DNA of 37,051 bases from a virus: IMG/VR virus record IMGVR_UViG_3300028045_000005; one strand, 5' to 3'. Numbering within the stretch: the first letter of the stretch is position 1; each line of letters starts with the position of its first letter. Below, piece by piece: positions 1,714 to 16,899 of this stretch. The notes under the pieces are model-generated. The model ran no database searches. It was not told the origin of the DNA and saw only the letters and a list, made by a program, of their open reading frames with translations. Made by a program: the position numbers and the translations under genes.

Positions 1714-2553
1714 TCAGTTCTTGACTAATATTAAGTCGAACCCTGCAGATATGCCCTGCGACCCACTTTGGGCCTTACCCATCATTCTTATGTCTGATTT
1801 TTCTTCAATCTTTAAATATGGTTTAAATGGGAGTGATTCAGTTGCACTGTCAGACACTATGTATCTTTTAACTTGGAACACGCTGCCCTCGGGTCTCACA
1901 TCAAGCCTGATAGCTGCCTCTACGTTCCGTTCCATTCCTATAAAGAAGCTAGTTAAATATGCCGTGTACCCGGACTTGACCGTATATACGGCCATAAGGG
2001 TCTGGTTGTTCTCTTCGCTTATTTGAGCTATTACGGTGCCTGTATGAGTGGCCGTAATATCGCCGTCGTTTTCTTCCTGAGACCCTGCTGTCAAAACCTT
2101 CATCCTGAATATTCTCAAATATGAATTAGAGCTTGTTACGTTTGAAGTGCCATTCATTGTTATGGTTTCAGAGATTGGATTGTATGACCCATCCAAGCCT
2201 TGTATCTCCACCGTTCTCGCACCAGAGCCTGCAGAAGTGTCGCTTGAGTCATCTGATTTAACCGTTACGGTGCTGGCAGATGTTTTCCATGTATAACTAG
2301 TGCTCACATCCCAGATCTCTTCAAAGTTGCTACCATTGACGTCAGGATTAAAACCAAACTTGTTAACTGACTCTGTGTCTGTAATTAATCCAGCGGGGAC
2401 CGCCAGGTAAAAGTCCTGGCCGTTACTTCCGACCACGGTTGCATCAGAAATCACATGGACAGCATTTTCACCGGACCCCTTGGCCTCTACTTTCGCCTTG
2501 AGCCCTGTGTCTTCGTCTTGTATTGAGGTGGAGCCAGATGCTTTTTGAACCAT
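1714..2553 (-). CDS. Beta-rich virion protein (function unknown)
   Basis: The ORF track gives 1714..2628. I chose ATG 2553..2551 because it forms a TAATG stop/start overlap with the 2553..2879 gene and is preceded by GAGAGGG 7 nt upstream. Ser/Thr/Gly/Asn-rich, typical of structural proteins. Confidence 0.55.
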   Translation of the reverse strand: MVQKASGSTSIQDEDTGLKAKVEAKGSGENAVHVISDATVVGSNGQDFYLAVPAGLITDTESVNKFGFNPDVNGSNFEEIWDVSTSYTWKTSASTVTVKSDDSSDTSAGSGARTVEIQGLDGSYNPISETITMNGTSNVTSSNSYLRIFRMKVLTAGSQEENDGDITATHTGTVIAQISEENNQTLMAVYTVKSGYTAYLTSFFIGMERNVEAAIRLDVRPEGSVFQVKRYIVSDSATESLPFKPYLKIEEKSDIRMMGKAQSGSQGISAGFDLILVKN

Positions 2554-2879
2554 TACTCGGCCCTCTCTGCTACGATTATATTGGAAGAACCATTGCTTAT
2601 TATATAAACAGGTTGGTTGGGCCCACATGGTATAGATATAAATTCATTTCTACTTACTCTGAAGCCTTTATTGGCACCACTTGTCGTCACCGGGGTGTCG
2701 AAGCTCCAGAAGCAGGCGTCGCCGGTATCTATCTCCAGGAGTATTTCTACTCTGTTTTCAAGCCTGGAAGCTCCAACTTTTATCTCAATTTCTGTTGTAA
2801 GAGTGAATCTATTTTGCACCGCAGACCCATTGGGGCCAGCGGGAACATTAGAGGGCGTTAAATCACTTATCGTCATCAC
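2553..2879 (-). CDS. Small beta-rich virion protein sharing a C-terminal domain with the 3072..3707 and 3718..4128 products
   Basis: 108-aa ORF. The pattern EILLEID-G...W...TTSG...G-V......-IYIISNGSSNIIVAE parallels RMIIQNLG...IYLG..TTSTGLKL..G....IYAL..SSTADIRISE in the 211-aa protein. Confidence 0.55.
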   Translation of the reverse strand: MMTISDLTPSNVPAGPNGSAVQNRFTLTTEIEIKVGASRLENRVEILLEIDTGDACFWSFDTPVTTSGANKGFRVSRNEFISIPCGPNQPVYIISNGSSNIIVAERAE

Positions 2880-3072
2880 TGCCCCCCACTTCCTGGATTG
2901 GATTACCCATCACCTCAGGCATTAGGGCAGCTTCGATTTTAGGCTGAAATTCATCAAACCATTTAAAGAGTAGTGCGACCCTTATGACCGCACTACCTTT
3001 CATATCGTAACTTCCACTATTAATTACGCTTTTAAGTGACTTATAATTTTCCAAATCCTTTTGGTTTATCAT
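2863..3072 (-). CDS. Hypothetical small protein
   Basis: 69-aa ORF. Start forms a TAATG overlap with the stop of 3072..3707. Fills the gap in the operon. Confidence 0.45.
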   Translation of the reverse strand: MINQKDLENYKSLKSVINSGSYDMKGSAVIRVALLFKWFDEFQPKIEAALMPEVMGNPIQEVGGSDDDK

Positions 3073-3707
3073 TATGCCGCAAACTCCGAGATCCTAATAT
3101 CGGCTGTTGATGATGCAGTAAGTGCATAAATGTCTGCACCAGCATCCCAAGCCATTTCGATTGATGATCCCTTAGGAAGTTTAAGCCCTGTTGAGGTAGT
3201 AACACCCACAACTTGGCCTAGGTAAATATCTTGAGTTCCAAGGTTTTGAATTATCATTCTTAATCTACTAGAAAGCGGCGTTGATGCAATTTGAGCAGCT
3301 GTAGTCGTAACTGATTCTGCAGTCGCCTTCCAAGAAGAATACCCGCCTTCAAATGATTGCACGTTAATACTTCCATCCGCATTCACTTCAAGAAAATCCG
3401 TTCCATCACCAACCTTAATGCTGTCACTGGCATGGGTGAGATCTCTAATGTCGAGGTCCGTTGCCGTAACCACGGAGTTGATTGACCCATCTGCATTAAC
3501 TGCAAGAGTGTCTGTTCCGTCACTAATGGCAACATTGTCTTGTGAGGCATCCAGGTCTCTTATATCTAAATCAACAGCATCTACTGTAAGTGAGTTGCCA
3601 CCGTCATTTATTGAAATATGTCCCGAAGCATCTATTAACAGATCATTTGATCCGTCCGAAACCTTAATCGAGTGTAAAGCTGCGTCGATTGAATCTAGTG
3701 TAATCAT
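3072..3707 (-). CDS. Fibre-like protein with three tandem ~38-aa repeats and a C-terminal beta domain
   Basis: 211-aa ORF. Repeats DLDIRDL-x4-D-x-(I/V)-x-(S/G)DGTD-L-VNADGSIN are read twice almost exactly, with a degenerate first copy. The C-terminal domain is shared with two neighbouring genes. Confidence 0.65.
   Translation of the reverse strand: MITLDSIDAALHSIKVSDGSNDLLIDASGHISINDGGNSLTVDAVDLDIRDLDASQDNVAISDGTDTLAVNADGSINSVVTATDLDIRDLTHASDSIKVGDGTDFLEVNADGSINVQSFEGGYSSWKATAESVTTTAAQIASTPLSSRLRMIIQNLGTQDIYLGQVVGVTTSTGLKLPKGSSIEMAWDAGADIYALTASSTADIRISEFAA
3354..3695 (-). repeat. Three diverged tandem coding repeats (period 114 nt / 38 aa) inside the 3072..3707 gene
   Basis: DLDIRDL recurs at residues 46-52 and 84-90. 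SDGTDTLAVNADGSIN and GDGTDFLEVNADGSIN follow at the same offset. An upstream degenerate copy reads SDGSNDLLIDASGHISIN. Confidence 0.7.
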
Positions 3708-3717
3708 ACATCCCTCC

Positions 3718-4128
3718 CTAGGTGTGTAATTCCAAAATCTCTACTGTATTACTTCCTTTATCTGACTGCACATAAAGCGTCTTGCTTGTTAATTGCAGCT
3801 GATCCAAGGTTAATACTGTGCTAGGTCTTATTGTAATATATTTTGTAGCACTTTCGGTAGCAGTAAATGCTAACTGTAATTGTGCTGTCTTATCTCTTGA
3901 TCTTATAATTAATGATTTTGTATCGTCGGTTATTGTCTGTGAAACCTCTGTGGCAGCAGTCGGAACCGACTTATTAACAATATTTGGGGTCATATTCAGC
4001 TGGCTAAACGTGATAGGTACTGGCTCGCCAGCTTCATTTGCTATCCATACCCTGACAGCAGTTTCACCAGAAGGTCTTTCTATAAACCTGTCCTGCTCTC
4101 TGTCTTTATAATTAGAACGCCAAGGCAT
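3718..4128 (-). CDS. Beta-rich virion protein, third member of the shared C-terminal domain set
   Basis: 136-aa ORF. SLIIRSRDKTAQLQLAF..TESATKYITIRPSTVLTL....KTLYVQSDKGSNTVEILE parallels the C-termini of the 3072..3707 and 2553..2879 products. TAATG overlap with the upstream gene. Confidence 0.55.
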   Translation of the reverse strand: MPWRSNYKDREQDRFIERPSGETAVRVWIANEAGEPVPITFSQLNMTPNIVNKSVPTAATEVSQTITDDTKSLIIRSRDKTAQLQLAFTATESATKYITIRPSTVLTLDQLQLTSKTLYVQSDKGSNTVEILELHT

Positions 4129-4325
4129 TATTTAACCCTCTTTATAGGTATGTATTTAGTGGCATCGGCATCAAACCAGCAGATAAATCTGCCATCTGAC
4201 AGCTGTGCCCTGTCCCTATATTTAAACTCCCGATCATTTATCAGACTGTTAAGCAGTTGAAGCTTTGTAAGTTCCTCGGGGGATTTAGCAATAAGGGAAA
4301 AACTCGCATTAAAGATATTTTTCAT
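4128..4325 (-). CDS. Hypothetical small protein downstream of the capsid gene
   Basis: 65-aa ORF. The ATG lies inside the U-tract of the capsid-gene terminator with no visible SD. The stop is TAATG-coupled to the next gene. Confidence 0.45.
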   Translation of the reverse strand: MKNIFNASFSLIAKSPEELTKLQLLNSLINDREFKYRDRAQLSDGRFICWFDADATKYIPIKRVK

Positions 4326-4354
4326 AAAGAAAGAAGGGGCCGAAGCCCCTCTTT
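4326..4354 (-). terminator. Rho-independent terminator/attenuator after the major capsid gene
   Basis: Minus strand reads AAAGAGGGGC-TTCG-GCCCCTTCTTTCTTTATG: a GC stem, a UUCG tetraloop and a U-rich tail. It starts directly after the capsid stop codon. Confidence 0.7.
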
Positions 4355-4355
4355 A

Positions 4356-5285
4356 TTAAACGTTTACGCCTACGCTTGAAGCGGTTGTTCCGGTGTAAAG
4401 TGCATCTTGATCCAAAATCCCGTAATCAAGGGTCATCTTGAATCCAAAATTTAAAAATCTATTAAGCTTATCAAAAGGCCCGCTGAGAACCATTTGTGGT
4501 AATTGGCTAACGGCCTTACCAAGTGCATTTTCGCCTAGGAAAATTGAATGGTAAGAGTCAACAGCAGCTGCACCAGCATCTGTGTTAACAGAAATAAGGT
4601 TGTCTTTGATGATTCTAAAACCATTAAGCATACCAATCTCATTTCTAAGAACTTCTTCAGGTCTTGCATACTTGTTAACATCAACCCATGATCCTGCACC
4701 AACAGAATCTCTTAGGTCATGGATAACATCGTCATGCATAACTGCTACAAACATTCCTTCACTCAAAGGAGCAACTGAACTTCTTGAAAGCTTGTTGTAA
4801 AGCCTATTAAGAAAAGTTGCAGTCATAACATCCCCTGCCGCAAGAGCAGCTTCTGAAGCAACTGACCCAGGGAATAGTTCGTTTGCAGAACCCTCAGCAG
4901 CCAATACGGCAAGCTTATTCATGGTTTGGCCCATGTTTTTCCCAACTAGTCTAGCGGCGCTCAAATCGGCCACCCCCCCAGTTTGCAAATTAGCAAGCGA
5001 AGTTGTCGTAATCACGTTTCCATACTCGGCCGGAGTGAAAGTTACCTTTGAGTCAACCAGTGCTTCACTCGTAACATCCTCATCTTCTGTAAGAGGTGTT
5101 GTTGCAAGAGCTAGCCTTGAATACTTAGGTATTTGAATAGATTTAGCGCCGATATCTTTTTTGTAAGATACAAACTGATCCATAACACCTTCAGCACCAG
5201 CTGCGATAATAAATTGTTGGTCATACTCTAGTACAATCGAGTCATCGACTGCAGCAGCATCAGACATGTTTAGTGTAAATGCCAT
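4356..5285 (-). CDS. Major capsid protein (HK97-fold type expected)
   Basis: 309 aa, Ala/Gly/Val-rich, with a strong AAGGAG SD. Lies immediately after a coiled-coil scaffold gene and downstream of portal and terminase, and is followed by a strong terminator. Assigned from position, size and composition; no search was run. Confidence 0.75.
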   Translation of the reverse strand: MAFTLNMSDAAAVDDSIVLEYDQQFIIAAGAEGVMDQFVSYKKDIGAKSIQIPKYSRLALATTPLTEDEDVTSEALVDSKVTFTPAEYGNVITTTSLANLQTGGVADLSAARLVGKNMGQTMNKLAVLAAEGSANELFPGSVASEAALAAGDVMTATFLNRLYNKLSRSSVAPLSEGMFVAVMHDDVIHDLRDSVGAGSWVDVNKYARPEEVLRNEIGMLNGFRIIKDNLISVNTDAGAAAVDSYHSIFLGENALGKAVSQLPQMVLSGPFDKLNRFLNFGFKMTLDYGILDQDALYTGTTASSVGVNV

Positions 5286-5295
5286 TTAACTCTCC

Positions 5296-5910
5296 TTAGT
5301 TATAATTTGGATCTCTTCCATATTTTCTTCTGACTCTGTCCATTTCACTTTGAGTCGTACACATCTTTAGTTCAGATAAGTAATCGCTTGGCTTATCTTC
5401 CTTGTACCGGGGCATTGTTTGTTTCATTTCAGTTGTTGACTTAAACATCCATGCATCTTTCTTTTTAATCCTGTCGATCTCAGAAGCAACGTTTTTAAAT
5501 GTAAGTCCCTCTTGATCGTATTCAAGATTGTCCATGTCAATTGCGTTTACAATTGCATCGACAGAATGTGCATCACCAGCATGTTTTGAAACCTCGAACT
5601 TAAGGTCTTTCATAACTGCTAGCTTTTGAGTATTGGCCAATGATGATTCTAGCTCAATGCTCCTAGAATTAGCTTTCTTAAGAAGTGCCTCCATATCGCC
5701 TTTCTGTGTTAGCGTTTGGTTTTCCTTCTCATCAACTTCACCCTTTAACTTGTTGTACTTGTCCTTGTTAGTCTTTGATTCAGTTAATAAACGTTCGTTT
5801 GTTGAACTCAATCGAGTAACAGTTTCTCTCAACTCGTTAAATTGCTCTAATGAAACTTGGTTTTCACCTTCTGTTGAATCACCTTCGTGGTTCTTTTGCT
5901 CAGTAGACAT
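5296..5910 (-). CDS. Scaffolding protein
   Basis: 204 aa, highly charged (E/K-rich) with a heptad-like coiled-coil N-terminal half. GGAGGA SD. Directly upstream of the capsid gene. Confidence 0.65.
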   Translation of the reverse strand: MSTEQKNHEGDSTEGENQVSLEQFNELRETVTRLSSTNERLLTESKTNKDKYNKLKGEVDEKENQTLTQKGDMEALLKKANSRSIELESSLANTQKLAVMKDLKFEVSKHAGDAHSVDAIVNAIDMDNLEYDQEGLTFKNVASEIDRIKKKDAWMFKSTTEMKQTMPRYKEDKPSDYLSELKMCTTQSEMDRVRRKYGRDPNYN

Positions 5911-5964
5911 GTAATGTCCTCCATGAATGTACAGAGTTCTCCGTACGTTAATAATAGTATGTTT

Positions 5965-6438
5965 TTATCTATTGCGTCTAGTCGCCTTCTTGAAACTTGA
6001 CTCTAATAGTAATTTAATCTTTTTAGTAATTGAACTATTAAATGTTTCTCTACCCTGCGGAAGCATTGCTCTTATAGTTTTTGAAGCGCCAGCACCTAAT
6101 TTGTCGTGGTATTTAGCAATCTTAGAGCTGAAAAAGATCACAATGTTCTTTCCTGTGTCTCTTATTTTTAAAGATCTAAGCATTTTCCCTGTCACTGTTA
6201 AGTTTATGGGCCTTTCTTTTTTGCCGTAACTCTTTAGATATTTACTTGTTTTCATAGATTTCTTATAGGAATCAGAGTATCTCACATATCTACCAGCACC
6301 CTTAACAGGTGAAACCCCTCTTTTAATGCTGTCTGTAATTGCTTTTTTTAACACCGGTTTAACGGCTCTATTAAAGTTGGTCCTAGTGTTAGGGATTAGC
6401 TTTTTGAGAAACTTAGTCCTCTCAATTTTAAAACCCAT
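5965..6438 (-). CDS. Basic virion-morphogenesis-like protein (paralog of 6428..6904)
   Basis: 157 aa, Lys/Arg-rich. SPVKGAG...Y-K....GKKERPINLTVTGKMLRSL...KYHDKLG......R-MLPQG..F-S-I-KKI aligns with the neighbouring gene product. It is reminiscent of Mu G / head-completion type proteins, but this is unverified. Confidence 0.5.
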   Translation of the reverse strand: MGFKIERTKFLKKLIPNTRTNFNRAVKPVLKKAITDSIKRGVSPVKGAGRYVRYSDSYKKSMKTSKYLKSYGKKERPINLTVTGKMLRSLKIRDTGKNIVIFFSSKIAKYHDKLGAGASKTIRAMLPQGRETFNSSITKKIKLLLESSFKKATRRNR

Positions 6439-8388: not shown

Positions 8389-9813
8389 TTAGTGTCTTGC
8401 TTTTATAGTAACTGTTTTTGACTTGGTACGTCCATAGCACCTAACAACCCCATAGCCTGCTGCAGTAGTAACGTGTTGATATGGCTTACTGTCATCTTCC
8501 TGGTAGCTTGCGCCAGCTTTGAGCTCACATAAACGAAAGCCCTTATCAAGATTCACACACTCCTTGTAGATGAATAATCTGTGTTGACCCTCATCGTTTT
8601 CACAGTATGCATTTACCCTGTTATGCCTTTCCTTTATGGGTGGGTTTGCTGTTGGAATATCTATCTCAAACATTATTTTCTGGTTCTTTCTATTTTTGTT
8701 GTTGGAGAAAAAGTTTTTTATGATCTCATAATTAGTATGTTCTGAATTAGTTGACCTTGCCTTCCCCGTGGCATCACCTTGAACCTTATACACAGTATCG
8801 TAATCCAAGAAACCTAACCCCAAGAGTTCTTTGCAACTCTCTTCCGTTCTCATTGATTCAATAACTATTTCGTTAAAGAAATGAAACTGCCCTTTAATGA
8901 ATTGAAACAGACACAAAGAAAGGGGCTTCCCTACACCAATATTAAAGTCCCATGAGATGTAAATAGGATATTTAGCATTAACCCGATAACTGTAATCTCT
9001 ATAGTTGTATTCTCTTTTGTAGCATGAATATATTTTGCCAGTGCCATCTGAGACCCATCGACCTCTAAGTTTTCTTTCGGCCTCTATTGGAGAAAGATTT
9101 GCTTTCAGCCCTTCCAAATATGTCTTGGGTAGAAATGGATTATCTTCTGCATTTGAATAGTGAACTTTCCTAGAGGGGAATTTGCCATCATCTAAAATAA
9201 AATAGTTGTATGCCCAATGCGTTTCCTCGTCTGGGTTTGTTAGGTATAAAATCCAGTTCTCTTTAACGTTTGAGTTAATAGAATTTATTCTACCTACTCT
9301 TGAAAACAATTCTGGGTGTACTTTCTGACACTCTTCAGTATCATTTTCTGTCACCTCTTCCCATATAGCTGCCGAATAAGGGTGTGATCTAAGTTTTTTA
9401 TATTTCTTATCTGCCCATGACCTTGATCTTATTTTAGCTCCGTTAATGTAATCAATTGAGGCTTTCTGTTTATTGTGCGTAAAGTGTACGCCTTCTCTCA
9501 TCGTGTCTTTCATGCCGTCGATGACTATCTCTGACCCTTCCATGTGATCCACTAGCATTTCAATCATTGTTTCTTTGAGATCTGGCATGGCCTTTCTGAA
9601 TAACCCAAACCGTGCATCTGAGAATTTAAGACAGTGGCTTACGGCCATATGAATTGCGAATATAGATTTAGCACTACCTACAGTTCCACTCATGAGCATT
9701 TCTAAAACGCCATTAACATCATAGTTATATGTTTTTCTCATGAAATAAATTAAGTCGTATTGCCATTGGATATCACGTGGATTGAATTCACTAAATACTG
9801 GGACATCTGCCAT
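8389..9813 (-). CDS. terL: Terminase large subunit
   Basis: 474 aa. Walker A-like MSGTVGSAKS near the N-terminus, Walker B-like AAIWEEVTE, and a C-terminal nuclease-sized domain. TAATG-coupled to the upstream small-subunit gene. Confidence 0.85.
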   Translation of the reverse strand: MADVPVFSEFNPRDIQWQYDLIYFMRKTYNYDVNGVLEMLMSGTVGSAKSIFAIHMAVSHCLKFSDARFGLFRKAMPDLKETMIEMLVDHMEGSEIVIDGMKDTMREGVHFTHNKQKASIDYINGAKIRSRSWADKKYKKLRSHPYSAAIWEEVTENDTEECQKVHPELFSRVGRINSINSNVKENWILYLTNPDEETHWAYNYFILDDGKFPSRKVHYSNAEDNPFLPKTYLEGLKANLSPIEAERKLRGRWVSDGTGKIYSCYKREYNYRDYSYRVNAKYPIYISWDFNIGVGKPLSLCLFQFIKGQFHFFNEIVIESMRTEESCKELLGLGFLDYDTVYKVQGDATGKARSTNSEHTNYEIIKNFFSNNKNRKNQKIMFEIDIPTANPPIKERHNRVNAYCENDEGQHRLFIYKECVNLDKGFRLCELKAGASYQEDDSKPYQHVTTAAGYGVVRCYGRTKSKTVTIKARH

Positions 9814-10211
9814 TAGGTTAGCTCACACTTGGTTACAAATGTTACTTGGTTTGATGCATCTGTTTTATTTTCTTCTTGCTTGTTGCCATACTCTCTGTGA
9901 TATCTAGTCTGGAGTACTAATTGAATTGCCCGCCAGTCTACTTTTTTAGCGTCAAAATTATCTATTTTCTTAGTTGACCCTGATGCCATATACAATAAAC
10001 GCTGCTCAAAAAACAACAACCCTTTTGATACACCCCGTCGTATACTGTCTCGAAATTCTTCATGCTCATCCATCCAACGATAGATTGTTGCCCTTCCTAT
10101 GCCTAGATGTCCAGCGCACCCGTGTATAGAATGACCTTTAGCCAGAAACTCTTCTGCTTCTCCACAGTGATCTACACTATAATCGGTTGGCCGGCCCCGC
10201 GGCATTAGCAA
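9813..10211 (-). CDS. terS: Terminase small subunit (HTH type)
   Basis: 132 aa. PRGRPTDY...LGIGRATIYRWMDEHEEFRDSI is the common N-terminal HTH signature of small terminases. Lies directly upstream of terL. Confidence 0.7.
   Translation of the reverse strand: MLMPRGRPTDYSVDHCGEAEEFLAKGHSIHGCAGHLGIGRATIYRWMDEHEEFRDSIRRGVSKGLLFFEQRLLYMASGSTKKIDNFDAKKVDWRAIQLVLQTRYHREYGNKQEENKTDASNQVTFVTKCELT
10190..10202. other. All-G/C 13-mer GCCGGCCCCGCGG, copy 1 (inside codons 4-8 of terS; includes FseI-type GGCCGGCC and SacII-type CCGCGG palindromes)
   Basis: Read directly. An identical 13-mer in the same orientation is at 13991..14003, in a different reading frame. Confidence 0.8.
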
Positions 10212-11479
10212 CTCCTCGGCATAGATTCTTCTTTCACTGCTTTTAACTCTTCATATGTAGCACCAGTGCTTTCAAGTTTAGCTTTTTTACCTGAGAATTT
10301 TTCAAAGCGCTCAATTACAACGTCACAGTAATGCTCGTCGAGCTCTAGCCCGTAGCATTTTCTTTTTGTTTTTTCACAGGCGATTAGAGTTGAGCCAGAG
10401 CCTAGAAATAAGTCTATAACATTGTAGTCCTTGCCCCACTTATTGATAAACCATTCGCAAATACCGACGGGCTTTTGAGTAGGGTGCACTCTTTTGCCGT
10501 CCTCAGGCTTCATCCCTGCCACGCCCTTATAGGTCACCCGTGCTATATCTCTTTTATGCTTAACCATAGACCAGCACAACTCAAAGTTTGATGCAAAACC
10601 GGCATCCATAAGAGAGTCATTGCCACCTGTCTTGTCCCAAACAACCCAAGATCCCCCAGAGGGCAAACTCCAGCAATAATAATCGGCGCCCCATAAAAAC
10701 ATCTCTTTAGGCGACAATATCTCGAATAAAAATGTAGGATCAAAATACTCAGAATCGCCGAGAACTTTATCGTAAGTGTTGCCACTTTTGATATTTCGCT
10801 TGGAGTTTTTAGATGGAAGGCATTTTGAATAGTCCGTGTCGAGGTCCATCCCATATGGCGGATCAGTAAAAACCATATCAGCTTTCTCACCCTGCATTAA
10901 CCTCTCAACATCATCAATCATTGTACTATCGCCGCACATCACTCTATGATCACCAAGCAACCAAACATCACCTCTTTTAGTGACAGGATCATGCTTAACC
11001 CCAGGCACGTGGTCGTCTTTTTCAGATGGGGGTAAAATTTCTGCTTCTATATCTAAAAGCCCCATGTCAAAGTCAGGTATATCAATCTGGTTTTTCGCTT
11101 CACTCATATCAATTTCAGCTGTAAACTCTAGGTAACCATCTGCGTTAACTTTGGCATAATTAGAGTCACACTCAAGTAATTTAAGCTTTGCTTCTCCTAT
11201 GTTCTCAGCTTCGATTCTACATGCTGGGATAGGGGGAATTACGTACCCCTCTTCTTCGAGCTTCCTCATGACCATGACTCTATGATGACCGTCTAAAATG
11301 AAGTTAGTGCCTTCGTTGGGCCATATAAAAATAGGGAATGAAAAACCTCTTTGTAGTATCCGAGATTTTAGCTTTTCATAATTTTCAGTTGATAGTGTCT
11401 TTAGATTGCCCTGCAGTAATGTAAATTCTTTTAGAGGGAGTTCAATCTCACCCTTGCAGGATATGCGTACTACTTTCAA
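10205..11479 (-). CDS. ParB-like nuclease domain fused to a DNA methyltransferase (beta-class N6A/N4C, DPPY type)
   Basis: 424 aa. TTG start preceded by AGGAG at 6-nt spacing. ILDGHHR (ParB-N motif), FTDPPYG (motif IV), then DLFLGSGSTLIACEKTKRKCYGLELD (motif I, FxGxG). Confidence 0.85.
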   Translation of the reverse strand: MKVVRISCKGEIELPLKEFTLLQGNLKTLSTENYEKLKSRILQRGFSFPIFIWPNEGTNFILDGHHRVMVMRKLEEEGYVIPPIPACRIEAENIGEAKLKLLECDSNYAKVNADGYLEFTAEIDMSEAKNQIDIPDFDMGLLDIEAEILPPSEKDDHVPGVKHDPVTKRGDVWLLGDHRVMCGDSTMIDDVERLMQGEKADMVFTDPPYGMDLDTDYSKCLPSKNSKRNIKSGNTYDKVLGDSEYFDPTFLFEILSPKEMFLWGADYYCWSLPSGGSWVVWDKTGGNDSLMDAGFASNFELCWSMVKHKRDIARVTYKGVAGMKPEDGKRVHPTQKPVGICEWFINKWGKDYNVIDLFLGSGSTLIACEKTKRKCYGLELDEHYCDVVIERFEKFSGKKAKLESTGATYEELKAVKEESMPRSC

Positions 11480-11516: not shown

Positions 11517-11546
11517 ATGTTAGTGGATTAGTTAGTGGAGCGTCAA
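11517..11546 (-). promoter_or_regulatory. Candidate sigma70-like promoter for the ParB-MTase gene, followed by the palindrome CTTGAGAACTCAAG
   Basis: Minus strand reads TTGACG-N18-TAACAT. The -35 sits in CTTGACGCTC, the same 10-mer as at 13141..13150. A direct repeat TCCACTAA x2 lies in the spacer. Weak -10. Confidence 0.25.
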
Positions 11547-13108
11547 GTTTTGTTAATCCTGGCTTCCGCTATAGTAAAAAACTCTTCTTCTCTCTCAACA
11601 CCTACAAAGTTGAAACCGTTCCGTTTGCAGGCGATGCCAGTTGTTCCGCTGCCCATGAAAGGGTCGAGGCATGTACCGCCTGAGGGAGTAACTAGTTTTA
11701 TAAGCCATTCCATGAGTTTGATTGGTTTGACAGTCGCGTGAAAATTACCCCTATCATCACACCCCGCATTTCTCTCGCTCTTTGAAGCTTTTGGGCAATA
11801 CAAAAACGGTGCGTCTAATTCAGTTATTGGGAGGGCGTTGAAAAATCTTGAGGCTGAGCCTTGATCAGTTTTCCTTGGCGGAGCGAGGCTCTTGCCCTGG
11901 CTAGACATTTTCCATGATTTTGTGTTTTGAACACTGGGAAAATTCCCGCTAGTTCTTATCACACACTGCTCCAAAAATTCCTTCTCAACACTCTCACTCC
12001 CGTCATGGAGTAGGTTGGCGGGGTGACGGCCTTGGTCATTAGGAGTAAATACCTTTTGGTCTCTCTGGTCTTTCTGATAGATATTGCCCTGGTTCCCAGA
12101 CTGCCCCTGAACTGTTTTTGATGCCTGCTTGTCCTGATTATTCTGGAACTCAACCCTACAAGCATCAATATTCATCGCACCCACGCCGTGCGCTTCAATG
12201 TTTTTGGTCATTGGTTTCAAGTGGGGTTTTTGAAATACGCCGATTGGCTCGACGCAGGGCTTCAGGCTTTGTAGTCCATATTTCCACCCCTGCCATTTTT
12301 CAAAGTCTAACCCTATAATTTCTTTCTGGCATTTTCCGCAAGCTTGTGTTCTGAGTTGCTTTGGAACAGCTCTAGATTTTCTATTCGATTGTCTCGCGGG
12401 TTGTGGTTTTTGTGATGTACTATCTCTGTTCTTTTCAGAGGCCTCTTTAAATGTCTCGCCATCATCAGCCTGTGTTCCAGGATGTAACCGTTCGCTTTTT
12501 TCATCTCCAGGTATTCTTTCGGGCATCTCACAAAGATCGGTCCTTTGTAGCTCCCCACGTCCTCCTTGTAGTACCTCCCTCCCTTCCACGCAGGGTTGTT
12601 TTTGCCCGCAAGTTTCGGGTTTGCACCTCTCAACCCTTTCGGTGGGTATGCTTTGTTCCGACATGCTCTGCTGCAAAATTTCCCTTTCTGTTTTTCCAGC
12701 TGGGACTTTCTCCGGTAGATTTGTGTCGGGCAAAGATCGCATGTCGTGTTTGGTTTTCTCATGGCAAGTACAGTACCTTTTTTCAAATTGTTTATAAAGA
12801 TCCGTTGCTTTCGGAAATCCCTGGCCTTGCACCCACGCTATCATTGGGTGCACTATCATACCGAGATCCTCGATCTGTACAGCGAGCCTGTGAAAAGTTC
12901 TTGATGCACTCATGGCGATTAAATAACCACCAGGCTTAAGCACTCTAATGCATTCTTTCCATATACCGATAGGGGGTAGTGCCTTATCCCAGTTTTTCCC
13001 CATAAAGGAGATGCCATAAGGAGGGTCGGTTACAATTGAGTCTATTGAATTACTCTCAATATCTTTTAAAACGTTATAAGAATTTTCGTTATATAAATCT
13101 AATTTCAT
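11543..13108 (-). CDS. DNA methyltransferase (beta-class, DPPY type) carrying a 161-codon in-frame insertion
   Basis: 521-aa ORF. IVTDPPYG (motif IV) is N-terminal. WQGWKYGLQSLKPCVEPIGVFQKP and GVGAMNIDACRV are central. LDPFMGSGTTGIACKRNGFNFVGVE (motif I) is C-terminal. Residues ~111-271 are a hydrophilic insert that coincides with the HNH ORF in another frame. Confidence 0.75.
   Translation of the reverse strand: MKLDLYNENSYNVLKDIESNSIDSIVTDPPYGISFMGKNWDKALPPIGIWKECIRVLKPGGYLIAMSASRTFHRLAVQIEDLGMIVHPMIAWVQGQGFPKATDLYKQFEKRYCTCHEKTKHDMRSLPDTNLPEKVPAGKTEREILQQSMSEQSIPTERVERCKPETCGQKQPCVEGREVLQGGRGELQRTDLCEMPERIPGDEKSERLHPGTQADDGETFKEASEKNRDSTSQKPQPARQSNRKSRAVPKQLRTQACGKCQKEIIGLDFEKWQGWKYGLQSLKPCVEPIGVFQKPHLKPMTKNIEAHGVGAMNIDACRVEFQNNQDKQASKTVQGQSGNQGNIYQKDQRDQKVFTPNDQGRHPANLLHDGSESVEKEFLEQCVIRTSGNFPSVQNTKSWKMSSQGKSLAPPRKTDQGSASRFFNALPITELDAPFLYCPKASKSERNAGCDDRGNFHATVKPIKLMEWLIKLVTPSGGTCLDPFMGSGTTGIACKRNGFNFVGVEREEEFFTIAEARINKT
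12305..12787 (-). mobile_element. 483-bp homing-endonuclease cassette inserted in the methyltransferase gene, bounded by the direct repeat TTTGAAAAA
   Basis: Repeat copies lie at 12779..12787 and 12296..12304 (minus-strand reading), both decoded F-E-K in the same MTase phase. The interval is visibly more GC-rich and purine-skewed than its flanks and is almost fully occupied by the HNH ORF. Confidence 0.6.
12313..12786 (-). CDS. HNH homing endonuclease (zinc-finger N-terminus plus HNH core), +1 frame relative to the host MTase
   Basis: CDLCPTQIYRRKS...GKFCSRACRNK, NPAWKGG, GYILEHRLMMARHLKRPLKRTEIVHHKNHNPRDNRIENLELFQSNSEH. The track start is TTG 12786; an ATG alternative is at 12762. No clear SD. 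Confidence 0.85.
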   Translation of the reverse strand: MKKGTVLAMRKPNTTCDLCPTQIYRRKSQLEKQKGKFCSRACRNKAYPPKGLRGANPKLAGKNNPAWKGGRYYKEDVGSYKGPIFVRCPKEYLEMKKANGYILEHRLMMARHLKRPLKRTEIVHHKNHNPRDNRIENLELFQSNSEHKLAENARKKL

Positions 13109-13119
13109 AGTGTATTAGA

Positions 13120-13149
13120 ATAGTAGTTTATGGATCAAAAGAGCGTCAA
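13120..13149 (-). promoter_or_regulatory. Candidate sigma70-like promoter for the late/MTase transcription unit, near-leaderless
   Basis: Minus strand reads TTGACG (13149..13144), N18, TACTAT (13125..13120), then 11 nt to ATG 13108. There is no SD upstream of this ATG. Confidence 0.4.
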
Positions 13150-13255: not shown

Positions 13256-13283
13256 GCATAAAAAAGCACCCGTTTCCAGGTGC
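13256..13283 (-). terminator. Rho-independent terminator ending the leftward early operon
   Basis: Minus strand reads AGGCACC-TGGAAACG-GGTGCTTTTTTATG: stem plus T6 tract, about 55 nt downstream of the 13338 stop. Confidence 0.6.
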
Positions 13284-13337
13284 CTTATCTTGCTTGATCT
13301 CTATTCAATCCCGTAAATAGTGGTCGGGTATAATATA

Positions 13338-16194: not shown

Positions 16195-16406
16195 ATGTCC
16201 TCTACTTCTGAATAAACCAGCTTTTTGTGGTCGAGTTGCTTTTTAATGTCTACAAGCACGCTCAGTTGGCGCCATGTCACAAACCCGTTTTCTTGGTAAA
16301 AATCTAGAAATTTAAATATCCATTCCTTGTCTCTGTTCGAGAGCCACTCTTTGTCATCCTGTAGCCCGTCCAGCAGTTTCTTGAAAATAACTTTTTGGTC
16401 ATTCAT
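16191..16406 (-). CDS. Hypothetical small protein
   Basis: 71 aa. ATGA overlap with the downstream gene. Confidence 0.45.
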   Translation of the reverse strand: MNDQKVIFKKLLDGLQDDKEWLSNRDKEWIFKFLDFYQENGFVTWRQLSVLVDIKKQLDHKKLVYSEVEDI

Positions 16407-16899
16407 TAAACATCTCCTTCACTTTTTGCCTTGCTCTTTGGTCGGCTTCTTTTGCAAATGCTACTCTGCTACGTCTTTCTATTTCTGCCTTCTCTCTGGC
16501 CATGCGCATTCCTATCAACTGGCTCTTGGTCATTGGCTTGGGCCCTTGCCGCTTCTTGGCCTTCTTTTTGTCTTTCTTTTTAAGCCTGTTCACTAGTTTC
16601 AAAGCCAATTTCTTGTACTCCTTAACCTCGAACCAGGATGGGGCGGTTTTAAGGCTGTGACCGATTCTAAGGTCTGTTTCGCACGTGTTGCTTTTACCTA
16701 GATTACAATCACGGCATAACACTTGTAGGTTCTTAATGTCCAACTCCAGCTCCGGGTAGCTGCTCCGTGGTTTTATGTGGTCTACATGTATCTGGACGGA
16801 GACGGCTGTAACACCACACGACATACACTTATGGCCGTAGAACTTTAAAACCTGCCACCTTACTTTTCTCCAAGCTTCTGTTTTGTAGAAGTCTGCCAT
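16399..16899 (-). CDS. HNH endonuclease with a basic C-terminal extension
   Basis: GHKCMSCG....IHVDHIKPRS.....DIKNLQVLCRDCNLGKSN is the classical HNH/His-Me motif. GAGGT SD 6 nt upstream. First gene of the leftward operon. Confidence 0.85.
   Translation of the reverse strand: MADFYKTEAWRKVRWQVLKFYGHKCMSCGVTAVSVQIHVDHIKPRSSYPELELDIKNLQVLCRDCNLGKSNTCETDLRIGHSLKTAPSWFEVKEYKKLALKLVNRLKKKDKKKAKKRQGPKPMTKSQLIGMRMAREKAEIERRSRVAFAKEADQRARQKVKEMFNE

Follow-up and report, generated by a model that had tools for sequence, protein, structure and literature searches.

A hidden HNH endonuclease gene in a phage DNA methyltransferase gene whose own reading frame is kept open by selection

How can a gene for a selfish-type nuclease lie within a useful gene without destroying it? 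Homing endonuclease genes are thought to persist in essential or useful genes only by way of self-splicing introns or inteins. The question is raised by a locus in the IMG/VR virus record IMGVR_UViG_3300028045_000005, a stretch of 37,051 nucleotides (nt) that we refer to as the window. Here, the gene of a beta-class N6/N4 DNA methyltransferase (hereafter, methylase) contains an open reading frame (ORF) for an HNH endonuclease in another frame. We consider it probable that this is a dual-coding cassette, i.e., a hidden HNH gene that is read through by the methylase and that is neither an intron nor an intein.

An HNH gene within an open methylase frame

Pfam N6_N4_Mtase (PF01555) matched the 521-amino-acid (aa) methylase in two stretches (113.7 bits; cut-off, 26.7), and a PHROG DNA methyltransferase family matched it at E=1.9e-60. 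Together with the PF01555 match, the order of its motifs is that of the beta class, with DPPY (D28-Y31) in the N-terminal part and DPFMGSG, the FxGxG S-adenosylmethionine (AdoMet) motif (D482-G488), in the C-terminal part. An earlier reading of this DNA, made from its letters and ORFs (the sequence-only reading), had proposed a 521-aa ORF with methyltransferase motifs at both ends, and the ORF, the Pfam match, and the motif positions bear this out.

The HNH ORF lies entirely within the methylase ORF at a frame offset of +1 (Table 1). Its product comprises an N-terminal Cys4 zinc ribbon (C8, C11, C30, and C34), an NPAWKGG motif, and the HNH core. Pfam HNH_3 (PF13392) matched it with 34.5 bits against a gathering threshold of 24.8 (E=1.5e-8), PHROG HNH families matched it at E=2.5e-18, and 104 database homologues were found at E<=1e-5, nearly all of them with a precomputed PF13392 assignment; a phmmer search of PDB sequences gave no match. 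The HNH alignment (A3) shows H117 and N129 in every sequence and H116 and H139 in nearly all, and the HNH_3 relatives carry annotations as homing or intron-encoded endonucleases. Thus, the +1-frame ORF at 12313..12786 with its ATG option at 12762 held up, as did its assignment to the HNH nucleases, for which the sequence-only reading had looked to a profile search.

The methylase frame crosses the insert with 0 stops, whereas the third frame contains 10-12. We recoded the HNH protein with the codon usage of the window, upon which the methylase frame acquired 15.9 stops on average and 0 of 20,000 recodings were open; permuting the synonymous codons of the HNH gene itself, which keeps its T-poor composition, gave a mean of 7.1 stops and a single open frame among 20,000 (P=5e-5). 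As the third frame of the real sequence carries its 10-12 stops, composition alone opens no frames. More specifically, a stop in the methylase frame requires an HNH codon ending in T that is followed by a codon starting with AA, AG, or GA. In the window HNH, T occupies the third position at 0/62 of these risk sites versus 19/94 of the other sites (Fisher p=3e-5). Pooled over 8 diverged loci, the counts are 0/457 at risk sites and 218/831 (26%) elsewhere (p=4e-47), and in each of eight low- or medium-GC loci none of 5,000 recodings was open. A natural negative control is provided by a free-standing HNH gene whose product is 57% identical (locus L122): 23 stops fall in its corresponding frame, and T is as frequent at risk sites (23/65) as at non-risk sites (36/103). 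These results establish decisively that the open methylase frame is selected and not compositional. The frame is almost never open by chance, which is the outcome for which a synonymous shuffle had been suggested. The caveat of that reading, that a purine-rich composition lowers the stop frequency, is answered by the same results: the insert is indeed T-poor and purine-rich, and composition alone does not account for the open frame. The core of the sequence-only reading, a selfish-type HNH overprinted in a methylase gene with the host enzyme read through instead of split, is thereby supported.

AlphaFold2 (AF2) predictions differ between the two frames of the same DNA. In the HNH frame, the mean predicted local distance difference test (pLDDT) score is 87.7. 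In the methylase, predicted from a 71-sequence alignment, the core scores >90 (residues 1-100 and about 440-521) and residues 118-252 of the insert score <50 (between 131 and 250, means over 10-residue blocks are 31-39); near the ends of the insert, around the Cys motifs described below, the block means are 56-73, and those of residues 251-280 are 56-64.

The homing-type HNH_3 gene occupies, in the +1 frame, the variable surface loop of the methylase between GFPK... and ...W-x-G-W/LKPxxEPI. Ribosomes reading the cassette in the methylase frame would make the enzyme as a single 521-aa polypeptide, with a roughly 160-aa hydrophilic, disordered loop and with the two halves of the catalytic fold intact. 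Such read-through is possible because HNH codon choice has eliminated all T-ending codons that would put a stop into the methylase frame. The HNH would be translated separately, and the cassette would have spread among methylases by nuclease-promoted gene conversion (homing), replacing the native loop.

The sequence-only reading had drawn an exact 161-codon insertion bounded by two copies of a 9-nt direct repeat, TTTGAAAAA. Both copies are indeed present, 483 nt apart and each decoded F-E-K, and the repeat by itself is as unremarkable statistically as that reading had cautioned (P about 0.04, shuffled junction windows). Because the repeat is marginal and has no counterpart in the six related loci in which one was sought (L001-L004, L032, and L033), the repeat-bounded parse is one possible boundary, and an exact insertion of 161 codons is not established. 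GLDFEK precedes W in the window, and the uninserted short allele P0016 has GMDGKW there; judging by this sequence, the trailer at 12296..12312 may be native methylase sequence and not insert. The 3' boundary of the insert may lie at the HNH stop codon, as reported for the ShiLan domain of mycobacteriophages (TAAC end; see below). In relatives, the HNH stop overlaps the first conserved methylase codons, which are LKP in L002 and L005 and GLG in L003 and L004. The 5' leader encodes R-Y-C-T-C in the methylase frame, including C113 and C115. As to composition, the insert had been described as richer in purines and GC than its flanks. The purine skew is real (63.6% vs 54-57%), and T is depleted (15.7% vs 21-28%); the GC content (46.2%) exceeds that of the 5' flank (39.4%) and not that of the 3' flank (46.9%).

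Opposite the insert, an antisense ORF of 162 codons (12451..12939, plus strand) is open, as had been noticed. The simplest account is that it follows from the T-poor coding strand, whose complement is A-poor and has few stops.

Table 1. Positions of the methylase, the nested HNH gene, and associated features in the window
Feature	Position	Strand	Remarks
Methylase (beta-class N6/N4 DNA methyltransferase)	11543..13108	minus	521-aa continuous ORF, insert included
Methylase N-terminal part, residues 1-110	12779..13108	minus	DPPY at 28-31; ends ...GFPKATDLYKQFEK
Methylase C-terminal part, residues 272-521	11543..12295	minus	WQGWKYGLQSLKPCVEPI ... DPFMGSGTT
Insert, as parsed in the sequence-only reading	12296..12778	minus	483 nt, methylase codons 111-271; hydrophilic, predicted disordered
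HNH ORF	12313..12762	minus	ATG 12762 to TAG 12313-12315; 149 aa; +1 frame relative to methylase
HNH ORF, alternative start	12313..12786	minus	TTG at 12786; 157 codons
HNH catalytic core	12346..12417	minus	H116/H117 ... N129 ... H139 (VHHKNHNPRDNRIENLELFQSNSEH)
5' leader of cassette	12763..12778	minus	AGGTACTGTACTTGCC; methylase frame only if HNH starts at ATG
3' trailer after HNH stop	12296..12312	minus	GGTTAGACTTTGAAAAA; G-L-D-F-E-K in methylase frame
Direct repeat, copy 1	12779..12787	minus	TTTGAAAAA; read F-E-K
Direct repeat, copy 2	12296..12304	minus	TTTGAAAAA; read F-E-K
CxC in methylase frame (C113/C115)	12764..12772	minus	In 16-nt leader upstream of HNH ATG
C-G-K-C in methylase frame (C257, C260)	12329..12340	minus	Over poorly conserved HNH C-terminal tail
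Promoter-like site (TTGACG-18-TACTAT)	13120..13149	minus	Upstream of methylase ATG; consensus match only

Distribution among methylase homologues

To place the cassette, we took the 120 best methylase homologues from a collection of 5.8 billion proteins, of which 106 could be classified at the insertion site. The segment between GFPK and LKPxxEP measures 120-240 aa in 53 of these 106, is a native loop of 45-80 aa in 49, and amounts to almost nothing in 4. Contigs from at least 60 sample blocks encode the 521-aa protein in identical form (P0001). After it, identity drops to only about 50% in the nearest other methylase, and none of 50,697 phage records matched the locus in a megablast search.

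Besides the window, nine inserted loci with DNA were compared, namely, mycobacteriophage Molly (L001), four loci from IMG/VR (L002-L005), the loci encoding P0002 and P0003 (L032 and L033), the 484-kb uncultured phage LR756508.1 (L036), and L121. All nine carry an HNH nested at the same site and in the +1 frame, with the methylase frame open. Identity to the window is 41-58% in the HNH frame and 26-36% in the methylase frame of the same DNA. Compared column by column, the HNH frame is the better conserved one along nearly the whole insert, the only exceptions being a gap-rich linker block and the 3' tail, and blocks of the HNH frame reach 2-3 times the methylase-frame identity. Searched alone, the methylase-frame insert belonged to no PHROG family and had no match in the 5.8-billion-protein collection, although P0001 contains it, so that this null result likely reflects low-complexity or word filtering. 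An alignable segment of ~160 aa, which the sequence-only reading had named as the mark of a native domain, does exist in a formal sense in about 50 homologues; the DNA of nine of them shows the HNH cassette there. The segment is alignable because these homologues carry the same cassette, and it is therefore not a native domain.

In a neighbor-joining (NJ) tree of the methylase flanks, inserted and uninserted alleles are interleaved, with 80% identity in the flanks of the closest mixed pair. The cassette is thus patchily distributed, and the nearest relatives of the window methylase are mostly uninserted; the uninserted homologues that had been looked for are therefore present among the closest relatives. 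In the closest inserted/uninserted pairs, the cassette stands in place of a native loop of 45-75 aa and the immediate flanks differ as well, so that the clean FEK-WQGW empty junction deduced in the sequence-only reading is not general. A related phage with this empty site, likewise suggested there, was not found: neither an exact search of IMG/VR with the reconstructed junction nor a gapped empty-site pattern in JGI metagenomes gave a match.

Several of the related loci have features of their own. In L122 (JGI 3300033148 Ga0366832_1002275, 1969-3010), the free-standing HNH shares about 60 nt with the 3' end of the gene for a compact N6_N4 methylase (197 aa), and a PF00145 cytosine methylase lies upstream; the same nuclease lineage is thus found both nested in and adjacent to methylases. 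L033 (logan SRR31155651_5390; P0003, 663 aa) contains a second hidden HNH within the same methylase gene at 3386-3793, which has 136 codons with an HNH_3 motif (VHHKNHDKKDNRIENLEL) and lies in the other alternative frame, in the C-terminal half; the methylase frame is open across it. In the first HNH of this locus the stop is gone, and the frame continues for about 30 codons within conserved methylase sequence. In L004 (IMGVR_UViG_3300033070_000709, 2382-6225), the methylase frame is open for 939 codons, and matches to the C-terminal half are scattered (4107-4544 and 5004-5063), with the last part (6022-6225) in another frame, a pattern suggestive of an interruption or of more insertions than the nested HNH. 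In L036 (LR756508.1, 298114-303581; an unannotated record), the open region of the HNH frame is longer, i.e., 296 codons between stops, and holds extra CxxC-type zinc-finger-like motifs.

L121 (ENA ERZ1749613 NODE_272, 2413-3954) illustrates how such genes are annotated. Here, an intact read-through methylase was broken up by the gene caller, which reported three separate ORFs (one of 198 aa located before the methylase start, the HNH with 222 aa, and a C-terminal methylase fragment of 275 aa) and left the N-terminal part of the methylase uncalled although its frame is open throughout. Nested cassettes are probably mis-annotated in this way in many assemblies. Since gene callers either overlook the HNH or break up its host gene, it is worth re-reading in the +1 frame those annotated methylases that are about 500 aa long and whose central region is listed as "unknown".

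Expression, loop cysteines, and rival explanations

A consensus scan gave a promoter-like site before the methylase ATG and none between there and the HNH, which would leave the methylase mRNA as the template for HNH translation. We infer that it is likely made by internal initiation on this mRNA, from the ATG at 12762, and that this is probably weak in the window; among relatives, the HNH ATG is preceded by AAGGAGG at 6 nt in L005 and by GGAG at 7 nt in L004. An A-run at the 5' junction (12779..12790, minus strand) reads GAAAAAAGG in the window and CAAAAAAAG in L033, where it includes an in-frame A_AAA_AAG heptamer. Frameshifting or transcriptional slippage at GAAAAAAGG, which would yield a fusion of the methylase N-terminal part with the HNH, was rejected, since the A-run is absent in L032 and a -1 slip at the 5' junction enters a stop-rich frame and not the HNH frame.

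In the methylase frame, the insert contains two pairs of cysteines, a CxC at its start and a CxxC near its end. We scored a CxC within 32 residues after GFPK and a CxxC within 45 residues before LKP. Both motifs are present in 46 of 51 inserted homologues, with neither in 3 and the CxxC only in 2; by comparison, 52/53 uninserted homologues have no such motifs. The three inserted sequences lacking both stand apart in the NJ leaf order. Where the CxxC falls over the HNH varies by subfamily (HK-AE in the window, L032, and L033; NL-LF in L002 and L003), and both TGT and TGC are used at the Cys positions. These patterns suggest that selection acts on the Cys motifs in the methylase frame, and its object may be a zinc clasp holding the loop at its base. 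Building on this, we tentatively propose, as a possibility that we would not yet call probable, that the cassette is an adapted dual-coding module with its own methylase-frame loop kit, belonging to a family widespread in environmental phages: the CxC of the leader and the CxxC over the HNH tail would bind zinc, staple the base of the 160-aa loop, and rejoin the methylase halves. If so, the zinc clasp would take the place of splicing at the protein level, the cassette would have a structural adaptation of its own that is so far unreported, and homing endonuclease genes would have a third, splicing-free way of residing within protein-coding genes besides introns and inteins. The uninserted P0105 (379 aa) has, at the same position, a 70-aa native loop with CAIC...CQC, i.e., Cys4 in the order reverse to that of the cassettes, which hints that zinc-stapled loops are tolerated or used at the insertion site independently of the HNH.

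Several observations weigh against a mobile, expressed cassette with a stapled loop. The HNH ATG of the window has AAGG only, 13 nt upstream, whereas a Shine-Dalgarno-like motif precedes 20/27 window genes, and the window HNH may be expressed very weakly or not at all. The native loop is missing from inserted alleles, which points to replacement and not to a textbook homing insertion. No empty-site or near relative of the window phage was found by the junction searches or among the methylases, the next of which is the one about 50% identical, so recent mobility is not demonstrated. Foldseek of the HNH model against PDB gave no significant match (top match, I-HmuI, E=2.4). As for the zinc clasp, it is drawn from motif counts and moderate pLDDT values, and the counts are not phylogenetically independent.

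Some of these points would suit a domesticated nested pair, in which the HNH is a stably inherited partner of the methylase and no longer a mobile parasite; for example, the nuclease might act on host or competitor DNA that lacks methylation, the phage itself being protected by the methylase, with compact dual coding keeping the two linked. The HNH has kept its catalytic residues and its fold among deeply diverged loci, all sampled copies of the window phage carry the cassette, the same HNH lineage stands free beside a methylase gene in L122, and the IMG/VR and JGI junction searches found no empty allele. We nonetheless regard domestication as unlikely, given that the patchy distribution among close methylases is what is expected of a selfish element, that the HNH_3 relatives are annotated as homing or intron-encoded, that the translation signal at the window HNH is weak, and that published phylogenies of ShiLan elements show horizontal transfer (PMC9957025).

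A hidden HNH cassette that is read through must also be set against the possibility that the insert is removed after all, as an unrecognized intron or a non-canonical intein, leaving a mature methylase without it. Homing endonuclease genes usually do reside in introns or inteins, and an Rfam scan at a permissive E-value returned, among matches at chance level, one to a group II D1-D4 family (group-II-D1D4-4, 12594-12718) with 15.2 bits against a gathering threshold of 49. No family reached its threshold, and the ATG-to-stop ORF fills all of the insert but 16 nt (5') and 17 nt (3'), leaving hardly any non-coding space for a ribozyme; on these grounds, a group I or II intron was rejected. An intein was rejected as well, because the Pfam search of the methylase returned methylase domains only, with no Hint domain, and because the junction residues are wrong (the insert begins R111-Y-C and ends F-E-K271, followed by W272, with no Cys, Ser, or Thr at the junctions). 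Both exclusions agree with the sequence-only reading, and the same negative has been published for ShiLan (PMC11855218). Moreover, selection against methylase-frame stops would be pointless if the insert were spliced out, which makes RNA splicing, too, unlikely; altogether we judge a cryptic splicing element very improbable. Less credible still is a native methylase domain with an incidental HNH ORF, or a methylase pseudogene left open by an accident of composition. The segment is alignable among about 50 homologues and its purine-rich, T-poor composition lowers the stop frequency; against this, the HNH frame is better conserved, with 2-3 times the identity in blocks, and matches curated HNH models, the methylase-frame segment alone matches nothing and is predicted to be disordered, the third frame, of the same composition, is interrupted by 10-12 stops and at most 1/20,000 recodings is open, and the C-terminal methylase motifs are invariant among inserted homologues. 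The stop-avoidance and frame-conservation results already contradict this explanation.

A transposon or insertion sequence with target-site duplication was also considered and rejected, there being no transposase and only the marginal 9-nt repeat that is absent from the 6 related loci.

Known hidden HNH genes and the genome setting

The arrangement is not new, having been published for mycobacteriophages in 2023-2025. The ShiLan domain was described as an in-frame, stop-free, patchily distributed insertion in mycobacteriophage methylases, with phylogenies in which the element has passed horizontally from one divergent methylase to another (Gosselin et al. 2023, PMC9957025), and was then found to encode an out-of-frame HNH, without intron or intein features, and to be predicted to loop out (Arsenault, Gosselin & Gogarten 2025, PMC11855218). 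A nested HNH arrangement was also noted in a genome announcement for Applejack gp54/gp55 (PMC12613952), and out-of-frame and antisense homing endonucleases have been reported within inteins (bioRxiv 10.1101/2025.01.02.630785).

The window element shares with ShiLan its N6_N4 methylase host, a stop-free insert filled by an out-of-frame HNH with zinc fingers, the lack of intron or intein features, the predicted loop, and the patchy distribution. The window HNH is homologous to the hidden HNHs of ShiLan, Mantra, and Starcevich (34-38% identity, E about 5e-10; for ShiLan, tblastn gave 34.4% identity over 84% of the query at E=5e-10). In contrast, the ShiLan insert lies about 16-25 residues further downstream, within the EPIVVARKP motif; its HNH is in the +2 ("third") frame and not in +1; it is flanked by an 11-aa duplication, where the window has only a 3-aa repeat; it ends with TAAC, where the window insert ends with TAG and a 17-nt trailer; and it has no CxC...CxxC pair in the methylase frame. 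Thus, the window element is a hidden HNH of the ShiLan type, a kind recently published, and is not the ShiLan domain proper, from which it differs in site, frame, and ends. The hosts differ too: in the GC-rich actinophages that carry ShiLan inserts, an open frame is much less improbable (P = 0.03-0.35, i.e., 0.033 for ShiLan and 0.35 for Mantra) than in the window (below 2e-4).

Closer in position are the cluster A1 mycobacteriophage methylases with a nested HNH, Molly gp60/gp61 (GenBank ON970627, which annotates gp61 inside methylase gp60) and Applejack gp54/gp55, which agree with the window in the site (GFPK... to ...LGTALKP), the +1 frame, and the open methylase frame; the methylase frame of Molly has CDC...CSWC, comparable to the Cys pairs of the window. 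The HNH of the two is only distantly related to that of the window: the Molly protein, which is longer (208 aa), gave no tblastn match at 1e-2 and is 25% identical to its ShiLan counterpart, and its phage is GC-rich (P(open) = 0.02; 0.021 in our recodings). Pacc40 gp60 also has an out-of-frame nuclease-like ORF within a methylase, of another methylase family, at another position, and with a less certain HNH assignment, and Tiff81/Sashimi have a free-standing HNH next to a methylase gene, as in L122 (PMC11855218). Inteins with out-of-frame or antisense endonucleases resemble the window in that the endonuclease lies in another frame or on the other strand of a segment translated in the host frame; such inteins sit in a self-splicing Hint domain and are removed from the protein, whereas the window has no splicing domain.

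Intron-encoded HNH homing endonucleases of the I-HmuI type and free-standing homing endonuclease genes of phages are well established. The former are like the window in their HNH_3-type nuclease, I-HmuI being the top, non-significant structural match, and differ in that a ribozyme restores the host gene; in the window, host function would be kept by translational read-through of the nuclease gene. Hidden-HNH cassettes would add a third route to introns and inteins, one on which the host protein reads through the parasite in another frame. To our knowledge, the published hidden-HNH cases all lie in GC-rich actinophages and come without experiments. The window phage, with 41% GC, and its relatives supply unambiguous evidence of selected read-through, a proof that the GC-rich actinophage cases cannot give, and show that the arrangement is common outside actinophages, in environmental phages (about half of the classifiable best methylase homologues). 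New here are the stop-avoidance statistics, the environmental spread, the conserved CxC...CxxC pair, and the replacement of the native loop.

With regard to the genome setting, the longest contigs with P0001 measure 37-43 kb, and the neighbors of the methylase are constant in them, namely, a second methylase (ParB-type) followed by the small and large terminase subunits. In the window, the second methyltransferase lies directly downstream of the interrupted methylase (10205..11479, minus strand); it has a C-terminal N6_N4_Mtase match and an uncharacterized N-terminal part that is ParB-like by eye, for which Pfam gave no such match. The terminase genes, of the small Sf6-type (9813..10211, minus strand) and the large Terminase_3 type (8389..9813, minus strand), come next. 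The two-methylase tandem is not conserved, as none of 80 related loci fetched via the ParB-type methylase gene has a close copy of the interrupted methylase. As the methylase is two genes upstream of the terminase genes, a packaging HNH of the HK97 gp74 type was considered for the nested ORF and rejected, since its family is HNH_3 with homing-type relatives and the nested copies of Molly and ShiLan are not near terminase genes. Elsewhere in the window, a free-standing HNH ORF of 166 aa (16399..16899, minus strand; PHROG HNH, E=2.8e-18) belongs to an HNH family different from that of the nested one. Just upstream of the promoter-like site of the methylase, a GC stem (GCACC ... GGTGC) followed by TTTTTT (13260..13290, minus strand), which the hairpin scan listed in its plus-strand version only, looks like the intrinsic terminator of the preceding transcription unit.

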